NCBI GenBank assembly: GCA_001914535.1
Contig: MNCR01000094.1
Span: forward strand, 8,447 to 63,635
Length of the DNA stretch: 55,189 nt
Direction of reading: 5' to 3'
Source of the DNA: Candidatus Rokubacteria bacterium 13_2_20CM_69_15_1
GTDB lineage: Bacteria; Methylomirabilota; Methylomirabilia; Rokubacteriales; CSP1-6
Shown here: one piece after another, positions 1,996 to 17,188 of the stretch
Position numbering within the stretch: the stretch's first letter is position 1
Layout of the letters: the number at the start of each line of letters is the position of its first letter
The notes under the pieces: generated by a model
What the model was told of the DNA's origin: nothing
The model's database searches: none
Seen by the model: the letters and a program-made list of their open reading frames with translations, nothing else
Program-made: the position numbers and the translations under genes

Positions 1996-3264
1996 ATGAC
2001 GCTGTTCGTCGCGGGGCTCTCGCACAAGAACGCGCCCGTCGAGCTGCGCGAGCAGCTCGCCGTGGAGGAGGACAAGCTGCGGGAGCTCCTGAGCGATGTC
2101 TCGGCCACGGGCGCGGTGCGGGAGACGTTGATCCTCTCCACGTGCAACCGGGTCGAGGTGTACGGGGTCGCCGAGGCGCCCGGCGAGGCGCGCGCCGTCG
2201 TGTTCCGCCACCTCTGCCGCTACCGGGGCGTCGCCTATGGCTCGGTGGAGCCCCTCCTGTACACGCACCTGGACGGCGACGCCGTGCACCACGCCTTCCG
2301 GGTCGCTGCGAGCCTCGACTCGATGATGATCGGCGAGCCGCAGATCCTGGGCCAGGTGAAGGACGCCTTCGGCCTCGCCCAGGCATGCGCGACGGTCGGG
2401 CCGGCGCTGCACACGCTCTTCACCGCGGCCTTCGCCGTCGCCAAGAAGGTCCGGACCGAGACGGAGATAGCCCGCCACGCGGTGTCGGTCTCGTTTGCGG
2501 CCGTCGAGCTCGCGCGGAAGATCTTCGCGGGGCTCGGTGGCAAGGCTGTCCTCCTCGTGGGTGCGGGCAAGATGGGCGAGCTGGCGGCGCGTCACCTGGT
2601 CGAGCATGGTGCGTTCCCGGTCTACGTCGCCAACCGGACGTGGCCGCGCGCCCAGGAGATGGCGCGGGCCCTCTCAGGGGCGGCGGTGCCGTTCGCCGAG
2701 CTCGAGACGGCGCTCGCGGGGGTGGACATCGTGATCACCTCGACGGGCGCCACCGAGCCGATCGTCACGCTCGCGATGGTCCAGCGGGTCATGCACGGGC
2801 GCCGCGCGCGGCCGCTCTTCTTCATCGACATCGCGGTGCCGCGCGACGTCGAGGGGAGCGTGAACACGCTCGCGGACGTGTACTGCTATAACGTCGACGA
2901 CCTGAAGCAGGTCGTCGAGGCGAACATCCGCGAGCGGCTCCGCGAGGCGCAACGCGGTGAGGCGCTGGTGATGCGCGAGGTGGCGAAGTTCCTCACCCGC
3001 CAGAGCGACGTCGAGGTCATCCCGACGATCGTCTCGCTGCGCGAGCGGCTCGAGGAGATCCGGGTGGGCGAGGTGCGGAAGGCGCTGGCGCGGCTGCCGG
3101 GCGCAACGGCCGAGACGCGCGAGGCGATCGAGGCGCTCTCGGCGGCCATCGTGAACAAGATCTTGCACGCGCCGATCACGAAGCTGCGCGAATCGTCGCG
3201 CGCGGGCTCGAGCCGCTCGTGGCTCCCGCTCATTCACGAGCTCTTCGGCCTGGGACGAAAATGA
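1996..3264 (+). CDS. hemA: glutamyl-tRNA reductase
   Basis: 422 aa. Motifs: LSTCNRVEVY, the active-site Cys region, and the NADPH-binding GAGKMGELAARHL. Confidence 0.95.
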   Translation: MTLFVAGLSHKNAPVELREQLAVEEDKLRELLSDVSATGAVRETLILSTCNRVEVYGVAEAPGEARAVVFRHLCRYRGVAYGSVEPLLYTHLDGDAVHHAFRVAASLDSMMIGEPQILGQVKDAFGLAQACATVGPALHTLFTAAFAVAKKVRTETEIARHAVSVSFAAVELARKIFAGLGGKAVLLVGAGKMGELAARHLVEHGAFPVYVANRTWPRAQEMARALSGAAVPFAELETALAGVDIVITSTGATEPIVTLAMVQRVMHGRRARPLFFIDIAVPRDVEGSVNTLADVYCYNVDDLKQVVEANIRERLREAQRGEALVMREVAKFLTRQSDVEVIPTIVSLRERLEEIRVGEVRKALARLPGATAETREAIEALSAAIVNKILHAPITKLRESSRAGSSRSWLPLIHELFGLGRK

Positions 3265-3355
3265 CGGCGCCGACCTCGGTCCAATGAAGCCCCGGGCTCC
3301 TCTCTCAGGCCACGTCCGGTCCGAGCCGGGCAGGCGGACCTCGGTCCAATGAAGC
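3261..3355 (+). repeat. 65 bp-period junction repeat (family A, about 1.4 units) carrying ATGA-linked mini-ORFs
   Basis: gacctcggtccaatgaagc occurs at 3272-3290 and again at 3337-3355. The core tcaggccacgtccgg is related to the repeats at 6078 and 13581. Confidence 0.85.
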
Positions 3356-4251
3356 TGGGAACGCGGGGCAGCGCGCTCGCGCTGGCGCAGGCACGCGCCG
3401 TGGCCGCGCGTCTGCGCGCGCTCGGAGCCGACGTCGAGATCGTCCCGATGCGGACCGAGGGCGACCGGCTGCTCGAGGCGCGACTGGCCACGGTCGGGGG
3501 CAAGGGCCTGTTCGTGCGGGAGATCGAGGAGGCGCTGCTCGAGGGCGCCCTCGACCTCGCGGTCCACAGCCTCAAGGACCTCCCGGCCGAGCTCCCGGCG
3601 GGGCTCACGCTCACGGCGTACGCCGAACGCGAGGACCCGCGTGACGTCCTCGTCGCCCGGTCGGCGGTGGACTTCGAGGGTCTGCGGGCGGGAGCGGTGA
3701 TCGGCACGTCCAGCCCGCGCCGGCGGGCCCTCGCGCTCGCACTCCGGCCCGACCTCGTCGTCGAGCCGATCCGCGGCAACGTGGACACGCGCGTGAGAAA
3801 GCTCGCGAGCGGACCCTGGGACGCGGTGATCCTCGCCGCCGCTGGGTTGAGCCGCCTCGGGCTCAAGCCCGGGCACGCGCGGCCGCTGGACCCGGCGGTC
3901 TTCGTTCCCGCCGTCGGGCAGGGGATTCTCGCGGTCGAGGTGCGCGCTGCCGACCGGGCCACGCGCGCCTGGGTCGACCGAATCGACCACGCCCCCACGC
4001 GGGTCTGCGCGCTCGCCGAGCGGGCGTACCTGGGCCGGCTCGGCGCCTCGTGCCACACGCCGATGGCCGCCCACGCGGTGCTCGAGCGGGGACGCCTCCA
4101 GATGACGGCGTTCGTGGCCAGCGAGGACGGTCGGCAGGTGCTCCGCGGTGCGGACAGCGGGACACCGGACGAGTGCCTGGCGCTGGGGCGGCGTCTGGCC
4201 GAAGCGTTGCTCGCCCAGGGCGCGGCCGCCGTGGCCGCGCTGCGGGTGTAA
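3349..4251 (+). CDS. hemC: hydroxymethylbilane synthase (porphobilinogen deaminase)
   Basis: 300 aa. Motifs: MKLGTRGSALALAQA, TEGDR, GKGLFVREIE and SLKDLP. Confidence 0.95.
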   Translation: MKLGTRGSALALAQARAVAARLRALGADVEIVPMRTEGDRLLEARLATVGGKGLFVREIEEALLEGALDLAVHSLKDLPAELPAGLTLTAYAEREDPRDVLVARSAVDFEGLRAGAVIGTSSPRRRALALALRPDLVVEPIRGNVDTRVRKLASGPWDAVILAAAGLSRLGLKPGHARPLDPAVFVPAVGQGILAVEVRAADRATRAWVDRIDHAPTRVCALAERAYLGRLGASCHTPMAAHAVLERGRLQMTAFVASEDGRQVLRGADSGTPDECLALGRRLAEALLAQGAAAVAALRV

Positions 4252-4252
4252 C

Positions 4253-5095
4253 GTGGCGAGGGTGACGCGGGTCGGTGGAACGCGCCCGCTCGAGCGGCGG
4301 ACGATCGTCGTGACACGGGCGGCCCCGCAGGCGCAGCGCTTCGTGCAGCTCCTCGAGGAGGCCGGCGCGCGGGTGCTGCAGGCGCCGACGATCGCGATCG
4401 AGCCCCCCCAGTCCTGGGAGCCGCTCGACGGAGCGCTCGCCGCGCTGGACACGTTCACGTGGGTGATCTTCACGAGCGTGAACGGTGTCGTCATGGTGGA
4501 CCGACGACTCTCCGCGCGCGGGCTCGGCTGGGCCGCCGTCGCCAGGAAGCGCATCGCCGCGATCGGCCCGGCGACGGCGGAAGCGCTCGCCGAGCACGGG
4601 GTGCGCGTGGAGGCGGTCCCGGACGAGTACCGCGCCGAGGCGCTCGTGGAGCGGCTCCGGCCGGCGATCGCGCCGGGTGACCGAGTGCTGCTGCCGCGCG
4701 CGAAGGAGACGCGCGACGTGCTCGTGGTCGAGCTGCGGCGGCTCGGGGCGTCGGTGTCGGAGGTGCCGGTCTATCAGACCCGACGCGTCGAGAACGGCGC
4801 GGGCCGCCTGCGCGAAGCCCTCGCCGCGGGCACGATCGACGCCGTGACGTTCACCAGCTCGTCCACGGCGCGCAACTTCGCCGAAGTCTTCACCGAGGAG
4901 GAGCGGCGCGCATGGCGCGGTCGGGTCACCATCGCCTCGATCGGCCCGATCACGGCGGCTACCGCGGCCGAATACGGGCTGACCACCGATGTCATGCCGA
5001 GTGAGTACACGATTCCGGCGCTCGCTCGGGCGCTCGTCGACTACTTTTCCCGGGTCCCGACACGCTCGGGGCGCCGGGGCAAAAGGAGCGCGTGA
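4253..5095 (+). CDS. hemD: uroporphyrinogen-III synthase
   Basis: The GTG at 4253 lies just after the hemC stop; the tracked ORF start at 4148 would overlap hemC. HemD-like motifs are RTIVVTR, FTSVNGV and [10 protein letters not shown]. The exact start is uncertain (4253 or 4262). Confidence 0.85.
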
Positions 5096-6081
5096 TGGCG
5101 CATGCGATGTTCCGTCCGAGGCGTCTCCGAGAGAAACCGCTGCTGCGCGCGCTGATCCGTGAGACGGCGCTGGCGGTCGACGACTTGATCTACCCGCTCT
5201 TCGCAGTCCACGGGCGCGGCGTCCGCGAACCGATCACGTCGATGCCGGGGCAGTTCCGGCTGTCCATCGACGAGCTGGTGAAGGAGGTCAAGGACGCGGC
5301 GGGGATGGGGATCCCTGCGGTGCTCCTCTTCGGGGTGCCGGCGGAGAAGGACCCCCGTGGCTCCGAGGCCTACGCCGAGGACGGCATCGTCCAGCAGGCA
5401 ATCCGCGCCGTGAAGGACGTCGTGCCCGATCTCCTGGTCGTGAGCGACGTGTGCCTCTGCGAGTACACGAGCCACGGTCACTGCGGGATCGTCGAGGGCG
5501 GCAGCGTCCGCAACGATCCGACGCTCGAGCTGCTCGCACGCGTCGCAGTCTCGCAGGCCGAGGCGGGGGCCGACATGGTGGCGCCGTCGGACATGATGGA
5601 CGGCCGCGTCGCCGCGATCCGCGAAGCCCTGGACGAGGCGACCTTCACCGACACGCCGATCATGGCCTACTCGGCGAAGTACGCCTCGAGCTTCTACGAG
5701 CCGTTCCGGGAGGCCGCCGACTCCGCGCCGCAGTTCGGCGACCGGCGCCAGTACCAGATGGACCCCGCCAACGCGCTCGAGGCCATGCGCGAGATCGCGC
5801 TCGATCTCGACGAGGGCGCGGACATCGTGATGGTCAAGCCCGCGCTGCCGTACCTCGACATCATCTCGCGCGCGAAGGCGGAGTTTGGAGTGCCGCTGGC
5901 CGCGTACTCGGTCTCCGGCGAGTACTCGATGATCCGCGCGGCGGGCCGGCTGGGCTGGCTCGACGAGGAGCGCGCCATGATGGAGGCCCTCGTGGGAATC
6001 CGGCGGGCGGGTGCGGACGTGGTGATCACCTACTTCGCGCGCGAGGCGGCGCGCCTCCTGGAGCGAGGCCGCTCGAGATGA
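5095..6081 (+). CDS. hemB: porphobilinogen synthase (delta-aminolevulinate dehydratase)
   Basis: The ATG at 5095 overlaps the hemD TGA (TGATG), with an AAAAGGAG RBS at 5081-5088; GTG 5092 is an alternative start. ALAD motifs: [25 protein letters not shown] and VKPALPYLD. Confidence 0.95.
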
Positions 6082-6260
6082 CGCCACGGGTGCCTTTGTC
6101 AGGCCACCCCCGGTGGGAGCCGGCCTCGCGGACCCCGCTACAAATGACGCCACGGGTGCCTTTATCAGGTCACCCCCGGTGGGGGCCGGCCTCGCGGACC
6201 CCGCTACAAATGACGCCCGCCGTCGACCGGCGCCGGCGGGGCATGACGCGCGCGCGCTGA
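6078..6260 (+). repeat. 66 bp tandem repeat (family A, 2 full units plus a partial) forming one in-frame 60-codon ORF
   Basis: Units begin at 6078, 6144 and 6210, each with atgacgcc. Units 1 and 2 are near-identical, with a few mismatches. Confidence 0.9.
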
Positions 6261-6263
6261 GCG

Positions 6264-6707
6264 ATGCGAATCTCGGCGAAGGGCGAGTATGCGATCAAGG
6301 CGGTGCTGGATCTGGCGATCCGCGGCGGGGAGGGGCTCGTGCCGATCCAGGACATCGCCGGGCGGCAGGCGATCCCGCAACGCTACCTGGAGCACGTCCT
6401 CTTGGCGCTGAAGGGCGCCGGGGTCCTCGGCTCGAAGCGCGGCGCCTCGGGCGGCTATCACCTGACGCGCCGGCCCGAGGAGATCAGCGTCGGTGACGTC
6501 TTGCGGGCCGTGGAGGGGTCCGCGGCGCCGCTCGAGACGCGCCGACGGACGGGCCGGCGGAACGGCGACGAGACGTACGAGCTCGGTGAGCTCTGGGAGG
6601 AGATCGGGAAGGCAGTCTCCGAGGTCGTCGACCGCGTCACCTTCGGCGACCTCGCGACCCGCGCACTCGCGCGCCGCAGCGCGGTGCGCGCGATGTACCA
6701 CATATGA
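6264..6707 (+). CDS. Rrf2 family transcriptional regulator, cysteine-free (CymR-like)
   Basis: 147 aa. The N-terminal wHTH is MRISAKGEYAIKAVLDLA...IPQRYLEHVLLALKGAGVL..RGASGGY. There are no Cys residues at all, so no Fe-S ligands. Its stop overlaps the cysK start (ATGA). Confidence 0.85.
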   Translation: MRISAKGEYAIKAVLDLAIRGGEGLVPIQDIAGRQAIPQRYLEHVLLALKGAGVLGSKRGASGGYHLTRRPEEISVGDVLRAVEGSAAPLETRRRTGRRNGDETYELGELWEEIGKAVSEVVDRVTFGDLATRALARRSAVRAMYHI

Positions 6708-7624
6708 CGCCGCGGCCGAAGATCGCGTCGTCGGTGCTCGAGCTGATCGGGCACACCCCGATGGTCCGCCTGAACCGGCTCCCGAGACCGGGGGGCGCGA
6801 GCGTCGTCGCCAAGCTCGAGTCGCTGAACCCCGGGGGAAGCGTCAAGGACCGGATCGCGCTCGCGATGCTCGAGGCCGCGGAGCAGCAGGGCCGCGTCAA
6901 GCCCGGCTCGACGATCGTGGAGCCGACCAGCGGCAACACGGGCATCGGGCTGGCGATGGCCGCCGCGGTGAAGGGCTACCGGCTCATTCTCACGATGCCC
7001 GACGACATGACCGTAGAGCGCCAGCGACTGCTGGCGCGGTTCGGCGCTGAGATCCACCTGACGCCCGCGATCGAGGGCATGACTGGCGCGGTGTACGCGG
7101 CCCAGGAGCTTTGCCGCGAGCACCCGGACTACTTCATGCCCCAGCAGTTCGAGAACCCGGCGAACCCCGAGGCGCACCGCCGCACCACGGCCCTGGAGAT
7201 TCTGGACGCCGTCGCCGGCCGCCTCGACGCGTTCGTCGCGGGCGTCGGCACCGGTGGCACGGTGACCGGGGTGGGTGAGGTGCTCAAGCAGAAGCTCCCC
7301 GGCGTGCGCGTGATCGCCGTCGAGCCGGCGAAGTCGCCGGTCCTCTCGGGCGGCCGGGCGCGGCCCCACGCGATCCAGGGGATCGGTGCGTCTTTCGTGC
7401 CTGGCGTCCTGAACCGGAGCATCATCGACCGGATCGTTCTGGTCCGCGACGAGGACGCGATCGGGTGGTCGCGGCGGCTCGCGCGCGAGGAGGGCCTGCT
7501 GGTGGGGGTCTCCGGCGGTGCCGCGGCGTTCGCCGCGTGCGCCGTCGCGGCGGAGCTCGGCCCCGAGCAGCTCGTCGTGACCGTGCTTCCCGATACCGGC
7601 GAGCGGTACTTGAGTCAGGGGTAG
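6704..7624 (+). CDS. cysK: cysteine synthase (O-acetylserine or O-phosphoserine sulfhydrylase; CysK/CysM type)
   Basis: 306 aa. It has the PLP-lysine region (NPGGSVKDR), TSGNTGIGLA, and a GTGGT loop (GVGTGGTVTG). Confidence 0.9.
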   Translation: MTPRPKIASSVLELIGHTPMVRLNRLPRPGGASVVAKLESLNPGGSVKDRIALAMLEAAEQQGRVKPGSTIVEPTSGNTGIGLAMAAAVKGYRLILTMPDDMTVERQRLLARFGAEIHLTPAIEGMTGAVYAAQELCREHPDYFMPQQFENPANPEAHRRTTALEILDAVAGRLDAFVAGVGTGGTVTGVGEVLKQKLPGVRVIAVEPAKSPVLSGGRARPHAIQGIGASFVPGVLNRSIIDRIVLVRDEDAIGWSRRLAREEGLLVGVSGGAAAFAACAVAAELGPEQLVVTVLPDTGERYLSQG

Positions 7625-7730
7625 TGCGAGCCGAGCGGCGGCCGCGGAGGCTCGGCGACGCGCGCCGCGAGGCGAGGCTGCAGACGGGGTAGTGCGAGCC
7701 GAGCGGCGGCCGCGGAGGCTCGGCGACGCG
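7618..7730 (+). repeat. 45 bp direct repeat (2 copies, 68 bp period) that includes the cysK stop codon
   Basis: ggggtagtgcgagccgagcggcggccgcggaggctcggcgacgcg occurs at 7618-7662 and 7686-7730. It contains an internal GCCGAG...CTCGGC stem around a GCGGCCGC palindrome. Confidence 0.85.
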
Positions 7731-7741
7731 GGTGACCGTTC

Positions 7742-7830
7742 GGGTTCGAGCGCCGGCTTTGCCGGCGCAACCGATTCCTGGGGGGAGGTTTCGGAAGGGG
7801 GGCAAAGCCCCCCTCCGAGGTTTCAGGAGG
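7742..7830 (+). repeat. structured two-hairpin intergenic element (family D, copy 1)
   Basis: Hairpin 1 is GCGCCGGC-ttt-GCCGGCGC (7750-7768). Hairpin 2 is GGAAGGGGGGC-aaa-GCCCCCCTCC (about 7793-7816). Related copies lie at 17192-17288 (inverted) and 32672-32786. Confidence 0.8.
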
Positions 7831-7835
7831 CCAGT

Positions 7836-8117
7836 ATGGCGGTCACCGTGTACATCCCGACGCCGTTCCGACGGGCGACGAACAACCGCGATCGCCTCCA
7901 GGCGTCGGCGAAGACGGTCGGCGGGCTCCTCGACGAGCTCGAGGAGGCCTTCGCTGGTCTCAAGGGGCTCGTGCGCAACGAGGGCGGCGAGGTGCACCAC
8001 CACGTCAATATCTACGTAAACAGCGACGCGATCGAGTCGCTCGACGGACTCTCCACACCGCTCAAGGACGGCGACGAGGTGGCGATCATTCCCGCCCTGG
8101 CGGGCGGTGGCAGGTGA
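7836..8117 (+). CDS. cysO: MoaD/ThiS-family sulfur carrier protein (CysO-like), C terminus ...AGGGR
   Basis: 93 aa from ATG 7836, with a CAGGAGG RBS at 7824-7830. It is beta-grasp-like, with a [16 protein letters not shown] tail. It lies between cysK and a JAMM peptidase, as in the mycobacterial mec-cysO-cysM set. Confidence 0.75.
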
Positions 8118-8593
8118 TCGTCACGCCGGAGGAGCTGCGAGCGATCCGAGAGCAGGCGATCGCGGAGTATCCGCACGAGGCGTGCGGCGTGGTCGTCACG
8201 CGTGGCGCCGAGCGGCGTCTCGTGCGTTGCCGCAACGCGCAGAACGACCTCCACGCCAAGGACCCGGCGCGCAACCCGCGCGACGCGCGGACGGCGTACT
8301 CCATCGATCCCGCCGACCTCCTGCGCATCGGGCGCCTGGAGGGCGAGGGATTCGCGGTCGCGGTCATCTACCACTCGCACGTCGACGCCGGCGCCTACTT
8401 CTCCGACACGGACAAGCGCCAGGCGCTCATCGGCGGCGAGCCCGCGTATCCCGGCGCCGCGTATCTGGTGACGTCGGTCGTCGGCGGGCGGGCGGAGTCG
8501 GTGACCGCCTTTCGCTGGGACGCCACGCGGCGCGACTTCCTGCCGGTCGACCTCGAGGCTTCGGAGCCAAGCTCCGGGAGACGCGCGACATGA
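8114..8593 (+). CDS. mec: JAMM/MPN+ metallopeptidase (Mec-like)
   Basis: 159 aa. It has the E...[18 protein letters not shown] motif and the EACG region. Its GTG start overlaps the carrier's TGA (GTGA). Confidence 0.85.
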
Positions 8594-9891
8594 GTGATTC
8601 GAAGCGGCTGTTCGAGACCGCGACGCGGCTCATTCCCGGCGGCGTGAACAGCCCCGTGCGCGCCTTCCGGGCCGTGGGCGGCGAGCCGTTCTTCGTCGCG
8701 CGCGGCGAGGGCCCGCGCATCTGGGACGTGGACGGGCGCTCGTACCTGGACTTCTTGGGCTCGTGGGGGCCGCTCATCCTGGGACACGCGCCGAAGGTGG
8801 TGGTCGAGGCCATCACCGAGGCCGCGCGACGCGGCACGAGCTACGGGGCGCCGACGGCGCTCGAGGTCGAGATGGCGGAGACGATCACCGCCGCCTATCC
8901 GTCGATCGAGCTGGTCCGCCTGGTCAGCTCGGGGACGGAGGCCGCGATGAGCGCGATCCGCGTGGCCCGCGGCGCGACGGGCCGCCCGCTCCTGGTCAAG
9001 TTCGACGGCTGCTACCACGGTCACGCCGACAGCCTCCTGGTGAAGGCCGGCTCGGGCGGCGCGACCTTCTCGATCCCGGACTCGGGCGGCGTACCGGCGC
9101 CGCTCGCCGCGCTCACCCTGAGCGTGCCGTTCAACGACCTCGACGCCGTCCAGGCGCTCTTCCGCGCGCGCGGCGACACGATCGCCGCGGTGATCGTCGA
9201 GCCGGTCGCGGGCAACATGGGCGTCGTGCCGCCGCGGCCAGGCTTCCTCGAAGGGCTCCGCGAGATCACGCGCGCCCACGGCGCCGTCCTGATCTTCGAC
9301 GAGGTCATCACGGGCTTCCGCGTCGCATACGGGGGAGCGCAAGCGCTCTACGGCGTCCGCCCCGACCTCACGTGCCTCGGCAAGATCATCGGCGGCGGGT
9401 TGCCGGTCGGCGCGTACGGCGGCGCCCGAGCGCTCATGAGCCAGGTGGCGCCGCTCGGCCCGATCTACCAGGCGGGCACGCTGTCGGGAAACCCGCTCGC
9501 CGTCGCCGCCGGCCTGGCCACCCTCCGCGCGCTCACCGGGCGCGAGGTCTACGCGACGCTCGAGGCGCGCGGCGCGATGCTCGAGCGCGGGCTCACGGAC
9601 GGCGCCCGGAAGGCGTCCGTCGCGCTCACGGTGAACCGGGTCGGCTCGATGCTCACCGCCTTCTTCTGCGACGGCCCCGTCACCGACTACGCGGCGGCGA
9701 AGCGGGCCGACACCGCACGCTATGCCGGCTTCTTTCACGCGATGCGGGAGCGCGGCGTCTTCCTGGCGCCCTCGCAGTTCGAGGCGGCGTTCGTCTCGCT
9801 CGCCCACGCCGAGGCGGACATCGAGTACGCGGCCCGGGCGGCCGCGGAGGCGCTGGCGTCGCTCGCGCGCTCCGCGCGGGGAGGGCATTGA
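8590..9891 (+). CDS. hemL: glutamate-1-semialdehyde 2,1-aminomutase
   Basis: The ATG at 8590 overlaps the mec TGA (ATGA). Motifs: [26 protein letters not shown] and [15 protein letters not shown]. Confidence 0.95.
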
Positions 9892-9959
9892 CGCGGTCGC
9901 GGGGCGAGTGATAGGCTTCACAAGCATCACACAATCCCGCGGAGGGCGATCGACTGCCG

Positions 9960-10550
9960 ATGGGCGCAAAGGCGGGCGTGGGAGCGCTGGCGCTCGTGCT
10001 CCTCGCCGTTCTGGTCTTTCTGGCGGTCTCGTCGTGGAGTCGCCAGCCGGCAGTCGCGAAGCCCTCGAGTCAGCCGATCAACTTCCCGCACAGCGTGCAC
10101 GTGCAGACGTACCGGATCGACTGCCAATATTGTCACAGCGACGCGCGGCGCTCGGAGTACGCGGGCCTGCCGTCGGTCGAGCGCTGCATGGGCTGTCACA
10201 AGATCGCCGGTGCGGCGTTGCCGGAAGTGAAGAAGGTCGCGGACTACTACGCGCGGAGCGAACCGATCCCGTGGGTCCGCGTGAACAAGCTGCCGGAGTT
10301 CACGTACTTCCCGCACAAGGCGCACATCCGGGCGAACGTGAAGTGCCAGACGTGCCACGGCCCCGTCGAGACGATGACGACGTTCGGCGCCGAGACGGGT
10401 CCGCGCCTGACGAACGACCTGCTGAACCTCGTCGGGCTCCGGCCCGCGCCGCCGCCGCTCACGATGGGCTGGTGCGTCGACTGCCACCGGCGGCAGAACG
10501 CGACGGCGGGCATGCACGCGCCGCTCGACTGCGTCACGTGCCACCATTGA
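9960..10550 (+). CDS. actA: Alternative Complex III subunit ActA, pentaheme cytochrome c
   Basis: 196 aa with an N-terminal TM anchor and five CxxCH motifs (CQYCH, CMGCH, CQTCH, CVDCH, CVTCH). It is the first gene of an actABCDEF-ordered operon. Confidence 0.85.
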   Translation: MGAKAGVGALALVLLAVLVFLAVSSWSRQPAVAKPSSQPINFPHSVHVQTYRIDCQYCHSDARRSEYAGLPSVERCMGCHKIAGAALPEVKKVADYYARSEPIPWVRVNKLPEFTYFPHKAHIRANVKCQTCHGPVETMTTFGAETGPRLTNDLLNLVGLRPAPPPLTMGWCVDCHRRQNATAGMHAPLDCVTCHH

Positions 10551-10555
10551 CCGGA

Positions 10556-10679
10556 CGGAGCCGGACGTGCCTGTGATTCGTCACCTTCGCCCTGACCCGA
10601 GCTGGAGCTCCGATAAACGGAGCCGCACGTGCCTGTGACTCGCCACCCTCGCCCGGATGCGAGCTGGAGCTCCGATACA
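10556..10679 (+). repeat. 62 bp tandem repeat, 2 units (family B, related to the family A core)
   Basis: Units are 10556-10617 and 10618-10679. The core gtgcctgtgactcgccaccc resembles gttcctgtgtcaggccaccc of family A, with 16 of 20 identical by hand count. Confidence 0.85.
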
Positions 10680-13579
10680 TGATGAACCGACGGGACTTCT
10701 TTCGGGTCGTCGCGGCGAGCGGCGCCACCGCCGCCGTCACGGGCTGTCAGCGGACGGCGGAGAACATTCTGCCGCTCGTGGTGCCGAACGAGCACATCGT
10801 GCCGGGCGTCGCCGCATGGTTTGCGACGGTGTGTCGCGAGTGCCCGGCCGGCTGCGGCGTCATCGCGAGGAACCGCGAGGGCCGCGTCGTGAAGCTCGAG
10901 GGGAACCCCGACCACCCGGTCAACCAGGGCGCGCTGTGCGCGCGCGGTCAGGCGGCACTCCAGGGCCTCTACCATCCCGACCGATTCGCGGGCCCGCGCC
11001 TTCGCGACGGGGCCGCGCTGAAGCCCGTGAACTGGGACGCGGCCCAGAAGGTCGTCGCCGACAAGATCGCGGCGCTGCGGAGCGCGGGCAAGGGATCGGC
11101 GATCGCGCTCGTGACCCAACTCGAGACGGGAAGCCTGGGCGCGTTCCTCGACACGTGGACGCGGGCCCTCGGCACGCGCCCGCGCCTGAGCTTCGAGCCG
11201 TTCGGCTACGAGGCGAACCGCGCGGCGAACCGGATCACGTTCGGCCGCGACGCGATCCCGTACTACGCCTTCGAGGACGCACGGGTCGTGGTCTCCTTCG
11301 GCGCCGACTTCCTCGAGACGTGGCTGTCGAACGTGAACTACGCGCGGGCCTTCGCGCACATGCACACGTTCCGCGACGGCCGCGCGGGCACATACCTTCA
11401 CATCGAGCCACGGCAGTCGCTGACCGCGTCGAACGCCGACGAGTGGGTACGTAACGCTCCCGGCAGCGAAGGGCCGCTGGCGCTCGCGATCCTCAAGGTG
11501 ATGGTCGACGAAGGGCTCGCCGACCGGCGCTTCGGCGAGGCCGTCGCCCGGATCGACGTCAAGAAGGTCGCGGCCGACAGCGGCGTTCCCGTCGAGACGA
11601 TCACGCGCGTCGCCCGGGCCTTCGCCGACGGCAAGCCCAGTCTCGCGATCGGCGGCGGGATGGCCGTGACGGGCTCGAACGCGACGCAGACCCTGGTCGC
11701 CGTCAACCTGTTGAATGCGGCGGCGGGCAACGTCGGCAAGACCGTCCGCTTCGGCCCCGACTCGGCGTTCGGCAGGGTGACGCCGTACGCGGAGACGGCC
11801 CGGCTCGTGCAGGCCATGGCCCGGGGCGAGGTGGAGGTGCTGGTGCTCGGCAGCGGCGTAAACCCCGCCTATACGCTCCCGGGTGGCCTCAAGTTCGCCG
11901 ACGCCGCGAAGAGGGTGGGGCTCGTCGTCAGCTTCGCGAACCAGCCGGACGAGACGACGGCGCTCGCCCACGTCGTGCTGCCCGACACACACTGGCTCGA
12001 GTCGTGGGGAGACTACTCGCCGCGGGAGGGCGTCGCCGGCCTCATGCAGCCCACCATGGCGCCCGCGCGCGACGCGCGACCGATGGGAGACACGCTCCTC
12101 GCGCTGGGCCGTGCAGTGCTCGGGAGCGAGGCGGGGAAGGGGCCGCTACCCTGGGCGACCTTCGAGCAATACCTGAAAGCGGCGTGGGAGCCCAGCGTCA
12201 AGGGTGCGTGGGCGTCGGCGCTCCGCCTGGGCGGTGTCTGGAAGGAGACGGCGCCGGTCGCGGTGACCGCGCGCGTGGCGCCCGTCGACCCGGCGCCCCC
12301 GACGTTCGAGGGCACCGCCGATGGGCTCGCCCTTCTCGCGTATCCATCCTTCAGGTTCTACGACGGGCGGGGCGCGAGCCGCGCGTGGCTCCAGGAAGCG
12401 CCGGACACGATGACCCAGGCCGTGTGGGATCCGTGGGTGGAGATCGCGGCGGAGACGGCGGCGAAGCTCGGCATCGCCCGGGGCGACGTGGTCAGGGTGA
12501 CGTCGCCCCACGGTGCGATCGAGCTTCCCGCGTACGTCTCGCCGACGCTCCATCCGCAGGCGGTCGCCGTCCCCATCGGCCATCGCTACGCGCCCTATCA
12601 CATTCCACGCTACGTGACGGCGCCCCTCGGCCCACGCAACCCGGTCGCGCTGCTCGGGCCGGCCGCCGAGGGCGCGTCCGGCGGCCCCGCGTACCTCGGC
12701 GTCCGCGTGACGCTCGCCAAGACGGGCGCCCGGCACCCGCTCGCCATCCTCCAGGCGACGCACGATCAGGAGGGTCGAGAGCTCGCGCAGCACGTGGACC
12801 TCCGCGCGGCGCGCGAGCAGGCGCTCCGTGGCCGCCAGGACCACGAGGCGCACACCAGCATGTACCCCGACCCGCGGTACCCCGGGTACCGCTGGGGCAT
12901 GGCGATCGACGTGGACGCGTGCATCGGCTGCCAGGCGTGCGTGGTCGCCTGCCAGGCGGAGAACAACGTGCCCGTCGTCGGGCGCGCCCAGGCGGCCTAC
13001 GGGCGACAGCTCCAGTGGATCCGCATCGAGCGCTGGGCGGAAGGGAAGCCGGATCGGCCCACGAACCTCTTCCTGCCGATGCTCTGCCAGCATTGTGAGG
13101 TCGCCCCGTGCGAGCCCGTCTGTCCCGTGTTTGCGGCGTATCGTACGGAAGAAGGTCTCAACGGTCAGGTGTACAACCGTTGTGTCGGGACTCGATACTG
13201 CGGCAACAACTGCCCCTACCACGTGCGCCGCTTCAACTGGTTCCAGTACGAGTTTCCCGCGCCGCTCGACGTGCAGCTGAACCCCGACGTGACGGTTCGC
13301 CAGCTCGGGGTCATGGAGAAGTGCACGATGTGTCTGCAGCGCATCATCGCGGGCAAGGACCACGCCCGTGACGAGAGGCGTGCGGTGAAGGACGGCGACA
13401 TCCTGACCGCCTGCCAGCAGACGTGCCCCACCCGGGCGATCACCTTCGGCAACCTGAAGGACGAGCAGAGCGCCGTGGTCAAGTTCGCGCACTCGCCGCG
13501 CGCCTATCACGTCCTGGAGGAGATCGGGACGCGGCCGTCCATCACCTACCTCCAGAAAGTCGTTCGTGAGCACGCGTAA
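10679..13579 (+). CDS. actB: Alternative Complex III subunit ActB (molybdopterin-oxidoreductase-like domain fused to a 4Fe-4S domain)
   Basis: 966 aa. It has a twin-arginine signal with a lipobox (MMNRRDFFRVVAASGATAAVTGC), an N-terminal Cys cluster (CRECPAGCG), and C-terminal ferredoxin-type CxxCxxC motifs. Confidence 0.9.
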   Translation: MMNRRDFFRVVAASGATAAVTGCQRTAENILPLVVPNEHIVPGVAAWFATVCRECPAGCGVIARNREGRVVKLEGNPDHPVNQGALCARGQAALQGLYHPDRFAGPRLRDGAALKPVNWDAAQKVVADKIAALRSAGKGSAIALVTQLETGSLGAFLDTWTRALGTRPRLSFEPFGYEANRAANRITFGRDAIPYYAFEDARVVVSFGADFLETWLSNVNYARAFAHMHTFRDGRAGTYLHIEPRQSLTASNADEWVRNAPGSEGPLALAILKVMVDEGLADRRFGEAVARIDVKKVAADSGVPVETITRVARAFADGKPSLAIGGGMAVTGSNATQTLVAVNLLNAAAGNVGKTVRFGPDSAFGRVTPYAETARLVQAMARGEVEVLVLGSGVNPAYTLPGGLKFADAAKRVGLVVSFANQPDETTALAHVVLPDTHWLESWGDYSPREGVAGLMQPTMAPARDARPMGDTLLALGRAVLGSEAGKGPLPWATFEQYLKAAWEPSVKGAWASALRLGGVWKETAPVAVTARVAPVDPAPPTFEGTADGLALLAYPSFRFYDGRGASRAWLQEAPDTMTQAVWDPWVEIAAETAAKLGIARGDVVRVTSPHGAIELPAYVSPTLHPQAVAVPIGHRYAPYHIPRYVTAPLGPRNPVALLGPAAEGASGGPAYLGVRVTLAKTGARHPLAILQATHDQEGRELAQHVDLRAAREQALRGRQDHEAHTSMYPDPRYPGYRWGMAIDVDACIGCQACVVACQAENNVPVVGRAQAAYGRQLQWIRIERWAEGKPDRPTNLFLPMLCQHCEVAPCEPVCPVFAAYRTEEGLNGQVYNRCVGTRYCGNNCPYHVRRFNWFQYEFPAPLDVQLNPDVTVRQLGVMEKCTMCLQRIIAGKDHARDERRAVKDGDILTACQQTCPTRAITFGNLKDEQSAVVKFAHSPRAYHVLEEIGTRPSITYLQKVVREHA

Positions 13580-13580
13580 G

Positions 13581-13740
13581 CCAATGCAGCCCCGCGTTCC
13601 TGTGTCAGGCCACCCACGGTGCACGCCGGCCTCGCGGATCTCGGTGCAATGAAGCCCCGCGTTCCTGTGTCAGGCCACCCACGGTGCACGCCGGCCTCGC
13701 GGATCTCGGTGCAATGAATCCCCGCGTTCCTCGCCCGTGA
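13581..13740 (+). repeat. 65 bp tandem repeat (family A, 2 units plus a partial) with ATGA/GTGA-linked mini-ORFs
   Basis: Unit ATGs lie at 13584, 13649 and 13714. Units 1 and 2 are near-identical apart from cag/aag in codon 2. Confidence 0.9.
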
Positions 13741-15083
13741 GCGACACCCGCGCCGCGTCCCCCACGTTCGCCGACGTCACTCGCGACGTCGTCCGCACGC
13801 TCGAGCCGCCGGGCAACCTCTACTTCGCGTGGATGTGCGTCGTCGCCCTGATGCTCGCCGGCGGGATCGGCGCCTGGACCGGCCAGATCTGGTGGGGCAT
13901 GGGAATGGCCGGCAAGCGCGTGCCCCAGATGTGGGCGATGTATATCACAAGCTTTGTGTTCTGGATCGGCATCGGTCACGCGGGCACGCTGATTTCGGCG
14001 ATCCTCTATCTCTTCCGGGCGCGGTGGCGGACGTCGATCTACCGCGCGGCGGAGGCGATGACGATCTTCGCCGTGATGACCGCGGGCCTCTTCCCGCTTA
14101 TCCACGCCGGGCGGATGTGGTTCGCCTACTATCTTCTCCCGTATCCGAATCAGCGGCTCCTCTGGCCGAATTTCCGGTCGCCGCTGGTCTGGGACGTGTT
14201 CGCGATCTCGACCTACCTGACGATCAGCACGGTCTTCTTCATCGTCGGGCTCGTCCCCGACATCGCGGCGCTCCGAGACGTGTCCACGGGCTGGCGGCGG
14301 CGCATCTACGCGATGCTGGCGCTCGGTTGGGAGGGCTCCGACTCGCAGTGGCGCCACTACCGGCGCGCGTACGGGCTGCTCGCATCGCTCGCCACTCCGC
14401 TCGTCCTGTCGGTCCACAGCGTGGTGTCGTGGGACTTCGCGATGGCTCTCGTCCCGGGCTGGCACTCTACGCTGTTCGCGCCGTTCTTCGTGGACGGCGC
14501 CATCTTCTCGGGCTTCGCGATGGTGCTCATCCTCGTCCTCCCGATGCGCCACTTCTTCAGGCTCCACGCCTACATCCAGGAGAAGCACCTGGACGCGATG
14601 GGCAAGCTCATCCTGGTGACGGGTCTGGTGCTGACCTACTTCTACGTGTGCGAGGTCTTCACCTCGCTCTACAGCGGCGACGAGATCGAGAAGGCCTCGC
14701 TCTTCTGGAAGGTGACCAAGAACTACGCGTGGGCGCTCTGGCTGATGTACTTCTGCAACTGCGTCTCGCCGCTGATCCTTTTCTGGGGGAAGGCTCGCAC
14801 GAGCCCGGTCGTGCTCTACGTCGTGTCCATCCTCGTCCTGATCGGCATGTGGTTCGAGCGCTTCAACATCATCGTCCCGTCGCTCGGCCACGACTTCTAC
14901 CCTTACACGTGGGGGATCTACTACCCGAGTCCGACCGACACGATGATCGTCATCGGCAGCTTCGCGTGGTTCTTCCTGCTGTTCCTCGGCTTCATCAAGG
15001 TGATGCCGTCGCTGTCGGTCGTCGAGGTCAAGGAGACCCTTCCGCCGCCGATCAAGGACCGGTCGCATGGCGGCCACCGCTGA
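13737..15083 (+). CDS. actC: Alternative Complex III subunit ActC (NrfD/PsrC-like quinol-interacting membrane subunit)
   Basis: 448 aa polytopic protein of NrfD-family character, with a GTG start. Its position after actB supports the call. Confidence 0.85.
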   Translation: MSDTRAASPTFADVTRDVVRTLEPPGNLYFAWMCVVALMLAGGIGAWTGQIWWGMGMAGKRVPQMWAMYITSFVFWIGIGHAGTLISAILYLFRARWRTSIYRAAEAMTIFAVMTAGLFPLIHAGRMWFAYYLLPYPNQRLLWPNFRSPLVWDVFAISTYLTISTVFFIVGLVPDIAALRDVSTGWRRRIYAMLALGWEGSDSQWRHYRRAYGLLASLATPLVLSVHSVVSWDFAMALVPGWHSTLFAPFFVDGAIFSGFAMVLILVLPMRHFFRLHAYIQEKHLDAMGKLILVTGLVLTYFYVCEVFTSLYSGDEIEKASLFWKVTKNYAWALWLMYFCNCVSPLILFWGKARTSPVVLYVVSILVLIGMWFERFNIIVPSLGHDFYPYTWGIYYPSPTDTMIVIGSFAWFFLLFLGFIKVMPSLSVVEVKETLPPPIKDRSHGGHR

Positions 15084-15579
15084 CACGGTGGTGGGCGTCT
15101 TCGCCCACGTCGACACGACGGTCCGTGCGCTCGAGGAGCTCCGGTCGAAGGGCTACCACGACCTGGCCGTGTACACCCCGGTGCCGGTGCACGAGATCGA
15201 GGAGGTGCTCGAGCGTGACCGCCCGGTGAGCCGGGTTCGCCTCTTCACGCTGATCGGCGGCCTCACGGGAACGGCGTCTGGGTTCCTGCTGACGATCTGG
15301 TCGGCGATGCAGTGGGGGCTCACGACCGGAGGCAAGCCCGTCGTCTCGATCCCGCCCTTCGTCGTGATCGCGTTCGAGCTGACGATTCTGTTCGGCGGCC
15401 TGGCGACCGTGATCGGAATGGCCGTGCTCGGCCGGCTGCCGCGGCTCCGGCCGAGCCCGAGCTTCGACCCGCGCTTCACGAACGACCGCTTCGGCATCGC
15501 CGTCCACTGCGCCCCGGGGCGTAGCGACTCGGTGCGCGAGATCTTGCGCACGGCGGGCGCCGAGGAAGTGCGCGCATGA
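15067..15579 (+). CDS. actD: Alternative Complex III subunit ActD (DUF3341-like)
   Basis: 170 aa with a soluble N-terminal domain and two TM helices. It overlaps the end of actC by 17 nt and is in the operon position of ActD. Confidence 0.75.
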   Translation: MAATADTVVGVFAHVDTTVRALEELRSKGYHDLAVYTPVPVHEIEEVLERDRPVSRVRLFTLIGGLTGTASGFLLTIWSAMQWGLTTGGKPVVSIPPFVVIAFELTILFGGLATVIGMAVLGRLPRLRPSPSFDPRFTNDRFGIAVHCAPGRSDSVREILRTAGAEEVRA

Positions 15580-16082
15580 AGTACGTCTTCATCCTCACGC
15601 TCCTGGTCGTCGCCGCCGCCGGCGGAATGATGGGCACGGCCGTGGTCATCCGCTGGAACGACAACATGACCGAGACCCCCAAGATCGTGCCCGGCGAGCG
15701 CGTGTTCAAGATGCCGCAGGGAGTGGTGCCGCGCGGGGGCGACCTCGTCATCCGTAAGGAGCAGCGCGAGATCGCCGCCAAGCAGCCGAACCCGATCAAG
15801 GCCTCCGAGGCGTCCGTCACCATCGGCCGGGAGCGCTTTCAGATCTTCTGCGTGCCCTGCCACGGCCCCGAAGCCAAGGGCGGCACGACCGGCCCGGTGG
15901 CGACGAAGTTCATCCCCACGCCAGACCTGACCAACGCCGACCTTCAGAAGCAGCGGACCGACGGGTACTGGCACAGCTACATCGTCGCCGGCGGCGCGGT
16001 GATGCCCGCTTACGCGGAGGCGCTGTCCTCCGAAGAGGCGTGGCACCTGGTGAACTTCCTGCGGAGCGTCGCGCGGAAATGA
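15576..16082 (+). CDS. actE: Alternative Complex III subunit ActE, monoheme cytochrome c
   Basis: 168 aa with an N-terminal anchor and a single CVPCH motif with a distal Met region. It has an ATGA-type overlap with actD. Confidence 0.8.
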   Translation: MKYVFILTLLVVAAAGGMMGTAVVIRWNDNMTETPKIVPGERVFKMPQGVVPRGGDLVIRKEQREIAAKQPNPIKASEASVTIGRERFQIFCVPCHGPEAKGGTTGPVATKFIPTPDLTNADLQKQRTDGYWHSYIVAGGAVMPAYAEALSSEEAWHLVNFLRSVARK

Positions 16083-17188
16083 CGATCGTCTGGGGTCTCG
16101 TCGTGGCGGTGGGTGCCATCGCGTTCCTCACCGGCGTGGGCTCGGCCGACGCGTCTCGGGTCTGGTCGGTCTATCTCGTGAACCTGGTCTTCTGGGCCGG
16201 ACTCGGCGTCACCGGCCCCGCCATCGCCGCGATGATGCAGCTGACCGAGGCGCGGTGGTCGCCGAGCGTTCGACGGATCGCGCTGACGACGGCGGGCTTC
16301 CTGCCGGTTGCCTTCGTGCTGTTCCTCGTGCTCTTCGCGGGCCAGGCGACGCTCTATCCTTGGGTGACGACGCCCCTGCCCGCGAAGCAGGCGTGGCTGA
16401 ACGTGCCCTTCTTCTGGCTGCGGACGCTCGTGGGCGCGGCGGCGCTCTTCGTGGCGGCGCTGGCCCTCGTGAGGGCGCTGGTGCGCGATGCGGTGCCGCC
16501 CGACGACGCACGCGAGCGCGCCCGGCGCAACCGCCTCGCGGTCGTCCTCCTCTTCCTCTGGGTGATCGGCGTCTCGCTGTGGGGCTTCGACCTCGTGATG
16601 TCGCTCGACCCCACGTGGTACAGCGGGCTCTTCGGCGGGTATTTCGTCGTCAGCACCCTCTATATCGGGTTCTGCCTCCTGTCCCTGCTCACGATTCGGG
16701 CGAACGCGCGCGGGCAGGCCTCGATCCCGCCCGCCGCCGTGCAGGACGTCGCGAAGCTCCAGTTCGCGATCTCGATCATGTGGATGTACTTCTTCTGGTC
16801 CCAGTACCTCGTGATCTGGTACGGCAACGTCCCCGTCGAGACCCGCTTCGTCGTCATGCGCTTCTTCGTCCAGCCGTGGCTCACGCTCGCGTGGATCGTG
16901 CTCGTCGTCGGCTGGCTGATCCCGTTCGCGTACCTGCTCAAGCGTCTCACGGGCCGGCCGCCCCAGCGCCACACGCCGCTCGTCGTGGTCTCTGTGTTCG
17001 GCCTCGTCGCGATCTTCCTCGAGCGCGTCCTGGTCGTGTTCCCGTCCGTGTCCCCGAGTGCCAAGCTCCCGTTCGGCGCCCGCGACCTCGCGATCACGGC
17101 CGGATTCCTCGCCCTCTTCGTGTTGTGCCGGCGCTGGTTCTTCAGCCAATTCAAGCCCGTCATCAACCTGCCGCACACGGGTCACTAG
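16079..17188 (+). CDS. actF: Alternative Complex III subunit ActF (second NrfD-like membrane subunit)
   Basis: The ATG at 16079 overlaps the actE TGA (ATGA); the tracked start at 16040 is probably an extension. It is a polytopic protein. Confidence 0.8.
   Translation: MTIVWGLVVAVGAIAFLTGVGSADASRVWSVYLVNLVFWAGLGVTGPAIAAMMQLTEARWSPSVRRIALTTAGFLPVAFVLFLVLFAGQATLYPWVTTPLPAKQAWLNVPFFWLRTLVGAAALFVAALALVRALVRDAVPPDDARERARRNRLAVVLLFLWVIGVSLWGFDLVMSLDPTWYSGLFGGYFVVSTLYIGFCLLSLLTIRANARGQASIPPAAVQDVAKLQFAISIMWMYFFWSQYLVIWYGNVPVETRFVVMRFFVQPWLTLAWIVLVVGWLIPFAYLLKRLTGRPPQRHTPLVVVSVFGLVAIFLERVLVVFPSVSPSAKLPFGARDLAITAGFLALFVLCRRWFFSQFKPVINLPHTGH

Follow-up and report, generated by a model that had tools for sequence, protein, structure and literature searches.

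Mycobacterial interspersed repetitive units (MIRUs), known from 1997 onwards and much used for strain typing in tuberculosis, have to our knowledge so far been treated as a mycobacterial peculiarity. As summarised from Supply et al. (1997), MIRUs lie between the cistrons of operons, are often arranged in tandem, co-oriented with the genes and inserted at start codons, and the ends of their small open reading frames (ORFs) overlap the flanking stop and start codons at −4, with a copy number that varies among strains (PMC12548453; PMC3184786). Units of 40–100 bp, polycistronic transcription, empty and filled sites and tetranucleotide direct repeats have been reported (PMC3184786), imperfect inverted repeats and internal GC-rich inverted repeats are mentioned in reviews (PMC12548453; PMC3184786), and a review on translational coupling of 2025 describes MIRUs as apparently mobile (PMC12548453). 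Here we analysed a 55,189-nt stretch of Candidatus Rokubacteria bacterium 13_2_20CM_69_15_1 (hereafter the window), in which the original prediction had described a MIRU-like relay of mini-ORFs, carried on a repeat, at the junction of the heme genes hemA and hemC. With a probability of roughly two in three, this spacer belongs to a dispersed 62–66 bp repeat family of MIRU type in Rokubacteria/Methylomirabilota that can expand in tandem and preserves translational coupling.

The anatomy of the hemA–hemC junction was found in the sequence, the ORF list and the translations just as it had been described. The hemA gene for glutamyl-tRNA reductase (1996..3264, + strand; ORF list; Pfam GlutR_N, Shikimate_DH and GlutR_dimer) ends with a TGA (3262–3264) that lies within a first ATGA and overlaps an ATG at 3261; this ATG opens an 8-codon ORF (MTAPTSVQ*, 3261–3287), whose TGA (3285–3287) is overlapped by an ATG at 3284, and from there a 22-codon ORF (MKPRAPLSGHVRSEPGRRTSVQ*, 3284–3352) runs to a TGA (3350–3352) overlapped by the ATG at 3349 of hemC, encoding porphobilinogen deaminase (3349..4251, + strand; Pfam Porphobil_deam). 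The 19-mer GACCTCGGTCCAATGAAGC, which marks the unit ends (3272..3355, + strand), occurs at 3272–3290 and 3337–3355, 65 bp apart, a match given by 0 of 100 dinucleotide shuffles, and grows to 22 nt at one mismatch (3269–3290 and 3334–3355). The hemC start codon is itself repeat sequence, the ATGAAGC at 3349 belonging to the repeat. What needed refinement was the description of the spacer, which is made of 1.35 copies of a 65-nt tandem unit and is not a unique sequence between short direct repeats: a truncated 23-nt unit (3261..3283, + strand), namely ATGA plus the 3′ 19 nt of the unit with the interior deleted, is followed by a full 65-nt unit (3284..3348, + strand; nhmmer E = 1.3e-14). Because 23 and 65 are both 2 mod 3, the relay is kept. 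The Porphobil_deam domain aligns over residues 2–206 with profile positions 2–206, and since residue 2 falls on profile position 2, ATG 3349 is taken as the true hemC start; no Shine–Dalgarno sequence of its own was seen within the last 13 nt before this ATG.

The hemA–hemC spacer is not the sole copy in the window. By using the core suggested in the original prediction, TCAGGCCACNNCCGG, as a query, further family members were retrieved at 6099, 6165, 13605 and 13670, all on the + strand, and Tandem Repeats Finder (TRF) together with a hidden Markov model (HMM) of the unit gave four + strand arrays of one repeat family, at hemA–hemC, hemB–rrf2, ActA–ActB and ActB–ActC, which sit within the heme (hem) operon and an alternative complex III (ACIII) operon with overlapping genes. 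The second array, hemB–rrf2 (6078..6260, + strand; Pfam ALAD and Rrf2), consists of 66-nt units (TRF, 2.1 copies, 6078–6217) and is bridged by one 60-codon ORF, which runs from the ATGA on the hemB stop (6078–6081) to a TGA at 6258–6260, 3 nt before the rrf2 ATG at 6264; its ATGs share one frame because the units are 66 nt long. The third array (10555..10678, + strand; TRF, 10555–10677; nhmmer E about 1e-13), between the ActA stop (10548–10550) and the ActB ATG (10679), carries two copies of a diverged 62-nt subfamily, and from its 3′ end comes a GGAG placed 9 nt ahead of the ActB ATG. The fourth array (13584..13740, + strand; TRF, 65 nt, 2.3 copies, 13582–13731), reaching from the ActB stop TAA (13577–13579) to the ActC start GTG (13737), comprises two 65-nt units and one 23-nt unit, and its translations give three mini-ORFs of 22, 22 and 8 codons, in which every TGA overlaps the next start and the final overlap is GTGA. 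Thus the start-to-start spacings of the relays are 23 and 65 at hemA–hemC, 65, 65 and 23 at ActB–ActC, and 66 and 66 at hemB–rrf2. Units inside one array are 88–97% identical versus about 77% between loci. The region around the third and fourth arrays (9960–17188) looks like an ACIII operon with a multihaem cytochrome ActA, a Tat-signal molybdopterin/FeS protein ActB (966 aa), an NrfD-like ActC and three more ORFs, where the Pfam checks cover ActA, ActB and ActC.

Scanning the GTDB collection, with one genome per species, for the internal, strand-blind pattern CCTNTNTCAGGYCACNNNCGGTNNNNGCCGG revealed the family at no fewer than 116 loci among the matches listed, on which the family counts given here rest; all are metagenome-assembled genomes (MAGs), and nearly all are labelled Candidatus Rokubacteria, Rokuibacteriota or Methylomirabilota. 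The unit HMM assigned 164 units in 131 arrays to these loci, or 135 arrays including the four of the window, mostly as single units and some of two to three; no match was obtained when viral contigs were scanned with the family pattern. The pattern matches in a Methanophagales (L053) and a Rhodospirillales locus (L097) were discarded as chance, as neither had an HMM match, and the locus labelled ‘Actinobacteria’ (L103) is probably mis-binned, its array context being equal to that of a Rokubacteria locus (L051). The window DNA is 99% identical to contig WNFW01000058.1 and 77–86% identical to several MAG loci with the same gene order. Two 5′ subfamilies share a common core, CCTnTCTCAGGCCACCCnCGGTnnnnGCCGGCCTCnnGGnCCCCGCTACAA: the first begins with ATGAGCGACGCGCGCC, or with ATGAAGCC as in the window, while the second begins with CGGAGCC and is preceded by a purine-rich stretch and a GTG (typical forms GAGATCGGGCGTG and GGGAGGTTCGGGCGTG), and this flanking GTG shares its frame with the terminal TGA, with or without the extra T that distinguishes variants. 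On the sense strand, the unit is open in all three frames. Core-to-core periods in the arrays of the listed loci are 66, 65, 54 and 74 nt, none of them 1 mod 3, which fits frame preservation, with few independent unit types. The genes downstream are functionally unrelated, i.e. hemC, rrf2, ActB/C/E, mutL, polA-like, hslU, hslV, ccmE, pmbA, SDR, methyltransferases, ABC permeases and a glycosyltransferase.

A census of the copies by position, orientation and phase, as the original prediction had proposed, was run on these public loci and the window, and the copies turned out to be non-randomly oriented and phased. Like MIRUs, the arrays lie between operon genes in the same orientation: the downstream gene is co-oriented with the array in 99 cases versus 14 opposite ones (p = 6e-17; 22 uncallable), and the upstream gene shares the strand of the repeat in 67 cases versus 18. 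Among the 99 co-oriented arrays, 61 have the downstream in-frame start codon exactly at the repeat 3′ end, ...CGCTACA|ATGA (55 of them ATG), and 59 of these 61 starts are followed by A (NTGA), compared with a background of 38% A at +4 in the same loci (p = 2e-22). Small ORFs overlapping the flanking stop and start codons, another trait of MIRUs, occur here as well. Of the 99 arrays, 71 have a stop codon that overlaps the start (NTGA); in 48 of the 71 an ORF in the frame of that stop begins in or at the array, with modal lengths of 22 and 23 codons, and half of these ORFs (24/48) begin on an NTGA that overlaps an upstream stop, while in another 13 of the 71 an open frame extends backwards into the upstream gene. 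Where units start with ATGA, at least 22 arrays have the upstream gene ending on the TGA of this 5′ ATGA. That the junction ATG is a real start is supported by the Pfam domains of several downstream proteins (hemC, SDR, tetrapyrrole methylase and HslV), which begin at residues 2–10; no Shine–Dalgarno sequence was found in the last 13 nt before the AUG, which read (A/C)CCCCGCTACA.

Orthologous junctions with and without the repeat were then compared, for hemC by a protein-guided scan of metagenome contigs that gave 80 hemC loci. The closest repeat-free ortholog (L117, 87% hemC identity) has an empty hemA–hemC junction, aaATGAAACTCGGG / ...ggaagaaaATGAAACTCGGG (aaATGAaac), which is a plain 4-nt stop/start overlap, and distant orthologs mostly have an equivalent GTGA overlap; deleting the 23-nt and the 65-nt unit, each with one ATGA, from the window gives exactly this arrangement. 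Other variants occupy the junction in L118–L123 and L114. ActB–ActC is empty in L112 and L017 (TGAgccgATGAGCGAC), the window array being inserted just before [A/G]TGAGCGAC, and hemB–rrf2 is empty in L114 and L119. Conversely, ActD–ActE is an unoccupied ATGA stop/start overlap in the window (15576..15579, + strand; gcgcgcATGAagtac, read as gcgcgcATGAagtacgtc) and is filled by the family in L112 and L017, in L112 as ATGA + 117 nt + ATGAaatacgtc, in which ATGA occurs again. As with the tetranucleotide direct repeats of MIRUs, filled sites carry ATGA on both sides (hemA–hemC and ActD–ActE) and empty sites a single ATGA. The copy number also varies as in MIRUs, in the manner of variable-number tandem repeats. 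A locus with flanks 99% identical to the window (L184), which carries the identical 23-nt piece, has 2.35 units at hemA–hemC versus 1.35 in the window, i.e. one extra 65-nt unit, and the mutL start has three units in L006 and two in L058. Across different MAGs, 29 pairs of orthologous filled sites were compared: unit identity is 84%, as is that of the opening 240 nt of the gene downstream, while unrelated unit copies share 77% identity; judging by these identities, many insertions are old. At L119/L120 the hemA–hemC insert is longer, with a decayed unit about 130 nt before the hemC start that is preceded by ∼65 nt bearing TTGACG and, 18 nt later, GATGAT, a possible internal promoter. Four distant loci with an empty hemA–hemC junction (GTGA overlap) carry units of the same family just after hemC, at hemC–hemD (L132:4921–4972, L161:1841–1954, L175:1053–1170 and L181:2682–2799), so the same operon appears to have been colonised at different junctions in different lineages.

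These arrangements suggest how such an element could live inside an operon. It would occupy ATGA sites at start codons, most often the 4-nt ATGA overlap of translationally coupled genes, in sense orientation, and a transposition-like process targeting ATGA may have brought it there; at hemA–hemC, insertion would leave the hemA stop, the hemC start and their coupling intact, and the original context (GGGACGAAAATGA) would afterwards serve the first mini-ORF. A ribosome ending hemA at the UGA would restart at the overlapping AUG and read the 8-codon frame, then restart again, read the 22-codon frame and stop at the UGA overlapping the hemC AUG, where it could reinitiate. It would be carried through the relay because the three sense frames are open, the unit ends with CAATGA and the lengths are 2 or 0 mod 3. 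With the second subfamily, the ribosome would come from the purine-rich stretch and GTG of the element itself. The length of an array could then change by slippage or by unequal recombination or exchange.

A bolder proposal, which we offer tentatively and think less likely than not to hold in full, is that the element serves throughout the phylum Rokubacteria as a portable cassette for translational coupling, one that homes in on ATGA at start codons and that many genes have come to use as their ordinary region of translation initiation. In that case, one subfamily may take the ribosome over from the upstream gene (ATGA to ATGA), whereas the other may bring a purine-rich stretch and a GTG leader ORF; the element may supply the downstream start and the upstream stop, and in some cases N-terminal residues or in-frame linkers, and units at orthologous sites have stayed as conserved as coding DNA across deep divergence.

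Several points weigh against a MIRU-type family that preserves coupling. The strict search pattern spans unit positions 16–46, so the conservation there is partly by construction, and the coding strand and frame behind the orientation and phase counts were called from the third-position GC (GC3) of the flanks, a crude measure, yet one suited to DNA of 70% GC. Stop/start overlap is lacking in 28 of the 99 co-oriented arrays, no upstream ORF start codon exists for 10 of the 71 overlapped starts, and in the relay analysis the ActA–ActB array of the window has no relay ORF and seemingly supplies a Shine–Dalgarno sequence instead. Open frames are expected by chance in 70% GC DNA, and frame preservation therefore rests on few, non-independent spacing classes. 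As for insertion, neither a transposase nor terminal inverted repeats nor hairpins were found, and ATGA may either represent a genuine duplication of the target or belong to the element itself. Finally, units at orthologous sites are as conserved as the adjacent coding DNA (0.84 versus 0.84), which hints at a sequence-level function beyond the relay model.

The last point leads to an alternative that we regard as unlikely but worth stating, namely that the repeat is a selected cis-acting site of the 5′ leader, bound by a trans-acting protein or small RNA that controls translation or mRNA processing, the mini-ORFs being incidental. It would account for a core conserved across MAGs whose genes differ by 15–25% (positions 47–66 being the search-independent part of that conservation) and for orthologous units that match coding DNA at 0.84 when unrelated copies stand at 0.77, and since the peptide frame differs between subfamilies, the conservation is not at the protein level. 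It is less easily squared with downstream genes of no common function, with presence, absence and copy number that vary at the same junction in close relatives, or with copies lying in frame inside genes (UvrA) and beside tRNA genes, and no conserved structure was found, nor did a scan of 3000–14000 at E up to 10 give an Rfam match on any array. The frame difference also bears on the idea, to which we give very little credence, that functional peptides of ∼22 aa are the selected product: the products of the window's three relay arrays are alike, including MKPRVPVSGHPRCTPASRISVQ, but in the large ATGAGCGAC subfamily the shared core is read in a different frame (MSDARLSQATHG...), with ...CTG TCT CAG GCC ACC... 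in place of the ...CTC TCA GGC CAC of the window type, and the variable unit columns show no 3-nt periodicity or third-position enrichment. The peptide is for these two reasons not the conserved object, and 8-codon truncations, in-frame fusions and copies without a start codon are common besides.

Sequence features of the unit ends and its folding bear on two further explanations. A promoter within the unit, transcribing hemC and other downstream genes, was considered for the TACAAT formed at the 3′ end (CTACAATG) and the TTGAC(T/A) of some 5′ variants, and is very improbable; TACAAT as a −10 box was ruled out by its overlap with the start codon, which would make the transcript begin inside the gene, a consensus scan of 3000–14000 found no promoter-like (sigma-70) site in the arrays, and the arrays lie within operons of overlapping genes. 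The family is short, dispersed, intergenic and GC-rich, has CTAC (reverse complement GTAG) near the unit 3′ end, and some copies come directly past tRNA 3′ ends, all of which would suit an element of the REP/BIME or MITE type, i.e. a palindromic or inverted-repeat unit that acts as a terminator or stabilises mRNA and is mobilised by a RAYT or IS transposase. Such an element is largely refuted by the present data and retains only a very slim chance: RNAalifold on 165 distinct units gave no consensus structure on the sense strand (0.0 kcal) and a weak one on the antisense strand, single window units folded no better than shuffled sequence on both strands (z −1.07 to +1.03), the scan of 3000–14000 found no terminator-like site in the arrays, and by inspection the 5′ end (ATGAGCGACGCG or CGGAGCCGGGTC) is unlike the reverse complement of the 3′ end (TCATTGTAGCGGGG), so that terminal inverted repeats were not seen; moreover, the strong orientation bias and the abutment on start codons are foreign to REP. 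A simple local duplication of the hemC start was ruled out too, as the unit recurs at three further junctions of the window and at more than 100 loci elsewhere.

Placed beside the described systems, the family is new and belongs to Rokubacteria/Methylomirabilota, and its design is already known from MIRUs. The MIRU-like design claimed in the original prediction is supported by the orientation bias, the repeat-end starts, the ATGA-flanked filled sites and the copy-number variation; the often tandem units, of 62, 65 and 66 bp in the window and 54–74 bp in related loci, fall within the size range of MIRUs. Its further claim, that such an architecture is not generally recognised outside mycobacteria, agrees with a literature search of incomplete coverage, in which ‘MIRU-like’ elements elsewhere and descriptions of such elements in Rokubacteria were both lacking. 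Unlike MIRUs, the family resides in Rokubacteria/Methylomirabilota and not in Actinobacteria, its units are unstructured, without the hairpins and inverted repeats reported for MIRUs, a large subfamily has no 5′ ATG and opens its relay ORF by a purine-rich stretch and a GTG, and some copies are in frame within genes. We therefore file it, by analogy, as the same kind of element as MIRUs in described design, likened by design and not by sequence alignment, and not as a member of the mycobacterial family (classes I–III), because the host phylum differs, hairpins and imperfect inverted repeats are absent and homology is no part of the basis, nor would one expect relatedness in sequence. That a soil phylum which is uncultured and unrelated to that of the mycobacteria holds an independent family of this design points to a general solution, showing how a repeat can live in tightly coupled operons without harm, and it offers a second system for comparing how such repeats move and whether the relay matters, with clear empty and filled sites, a defined ATGA junction and two kinds of 5′ module. 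For practical use, gene callers are expected to misplace the start and stop codons of such junctions in MAGs of Rokubacteria and possibly produce spurious small proteins or fused genes, and the arrays could serve as variable-number markers for separating strains in soil metagenomes.

Other systems share single traits with the family. The palindromic elements of Rickettsia (RPEs), mostly intragenic, can lie in frame without breaking genes; the in-frame copies described below are like them, whereas the family as a whole has no structure and is found mainly at start codons. REP/BIME and MITE families (ERIC, Correia, RUP) are likewise short, abundant, intergenic and lineage-specific, but the present family has no hairpin and no terminal inverted repeats, is oriented with transcription (99 versus 14) and has its 3′ end fused to the start codon. 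In the synthetic bicistronic design (BCD), as with natural leader ORFs, terminating ribosomes are brought to a start codon whatever ribosome-binding site that codon has (PMC12548453). The short upstream ORF whose stop overlaps the start of the gene of interest is common to BCD and the units; the BCD leader ORF, unlike the units, embeds the Shine–Dalgarno sequence of the second cistron, and the cassette here is natural, dispersed and repeated.

Further arrangements of the unit were observed in the public loci. Half-units of 38–54 nt lie upstream of many CGGAGCC-type full units (L044, L009, L017, L098, L114 and L006/L058); they consist of the 5′ part of the unit plus a linker such as AGGAGGTTCGGGCGTG or GGGTTGACTGCGGAC, and form separate arrays, whose period is 54 nt in L006 and L058. 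In-frame units without a stop, inside or between coding sequences, occur at L091:2794–2859 (−), L046:7802–7849 (+), L019:7091–7157 and L105:2386–2452 (−): in UvrA (L091 and L046) they form a repeat insert of ∼25 residues at an identical position in two MAGs, and the others are a thiolase–DUF35 read-through and a LivM–LivG-like permease–ATPase read-through. A unit variant with CTCATGG (L005, L008, L068, L075 and L104) precedes an epimerase-like gene and one hslU ortholog, and the sole or first in-frame ATG of those genes is 15 nt inside the unit, so that the repeat may encode the first five residues of the downstream protein, with a GTG at +12 as an alternative start in three of the five loci. 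Six arrays stand tail to tail with the 3′ ends of tRNA genes at 0–3 nt (four tRNA-Met, one tRNA-Gly and one tRNA-Tyr), including L012:4090–4228, L029:6313–6451, L035:663–801, L082:1245–1518 and L026:379–783; these repeats are antisense to the tRNA and have the junction CAA|TGG or CAA|(C/T)AG instead of ATGA, and such copies fall outside what the relay model explains.

The + strand carries nearly all genes of the 55-kb window. At hemB–rrf2 in three close relatives, L121 (about 6770–7180), L122 and L123, another intercistronic tandem repeat, unrelated to the first, was noticed, with about 5, 2 and 3 copies, respectively, of a ∼64-nt unit, GGGTAGTGCGAGCCGCAGCACGTCGCGGGGCTGGGGCCCCGCCGTGCGAGGCGAGTCTATGAA, that has a GC-rich palindrome inside and ATGA at its end. 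Sequence related to this repeat lies upstream of hemC in L133, L140, L157 and L170, and Rokubacteria seem to carry several such intercistronic repeat families.

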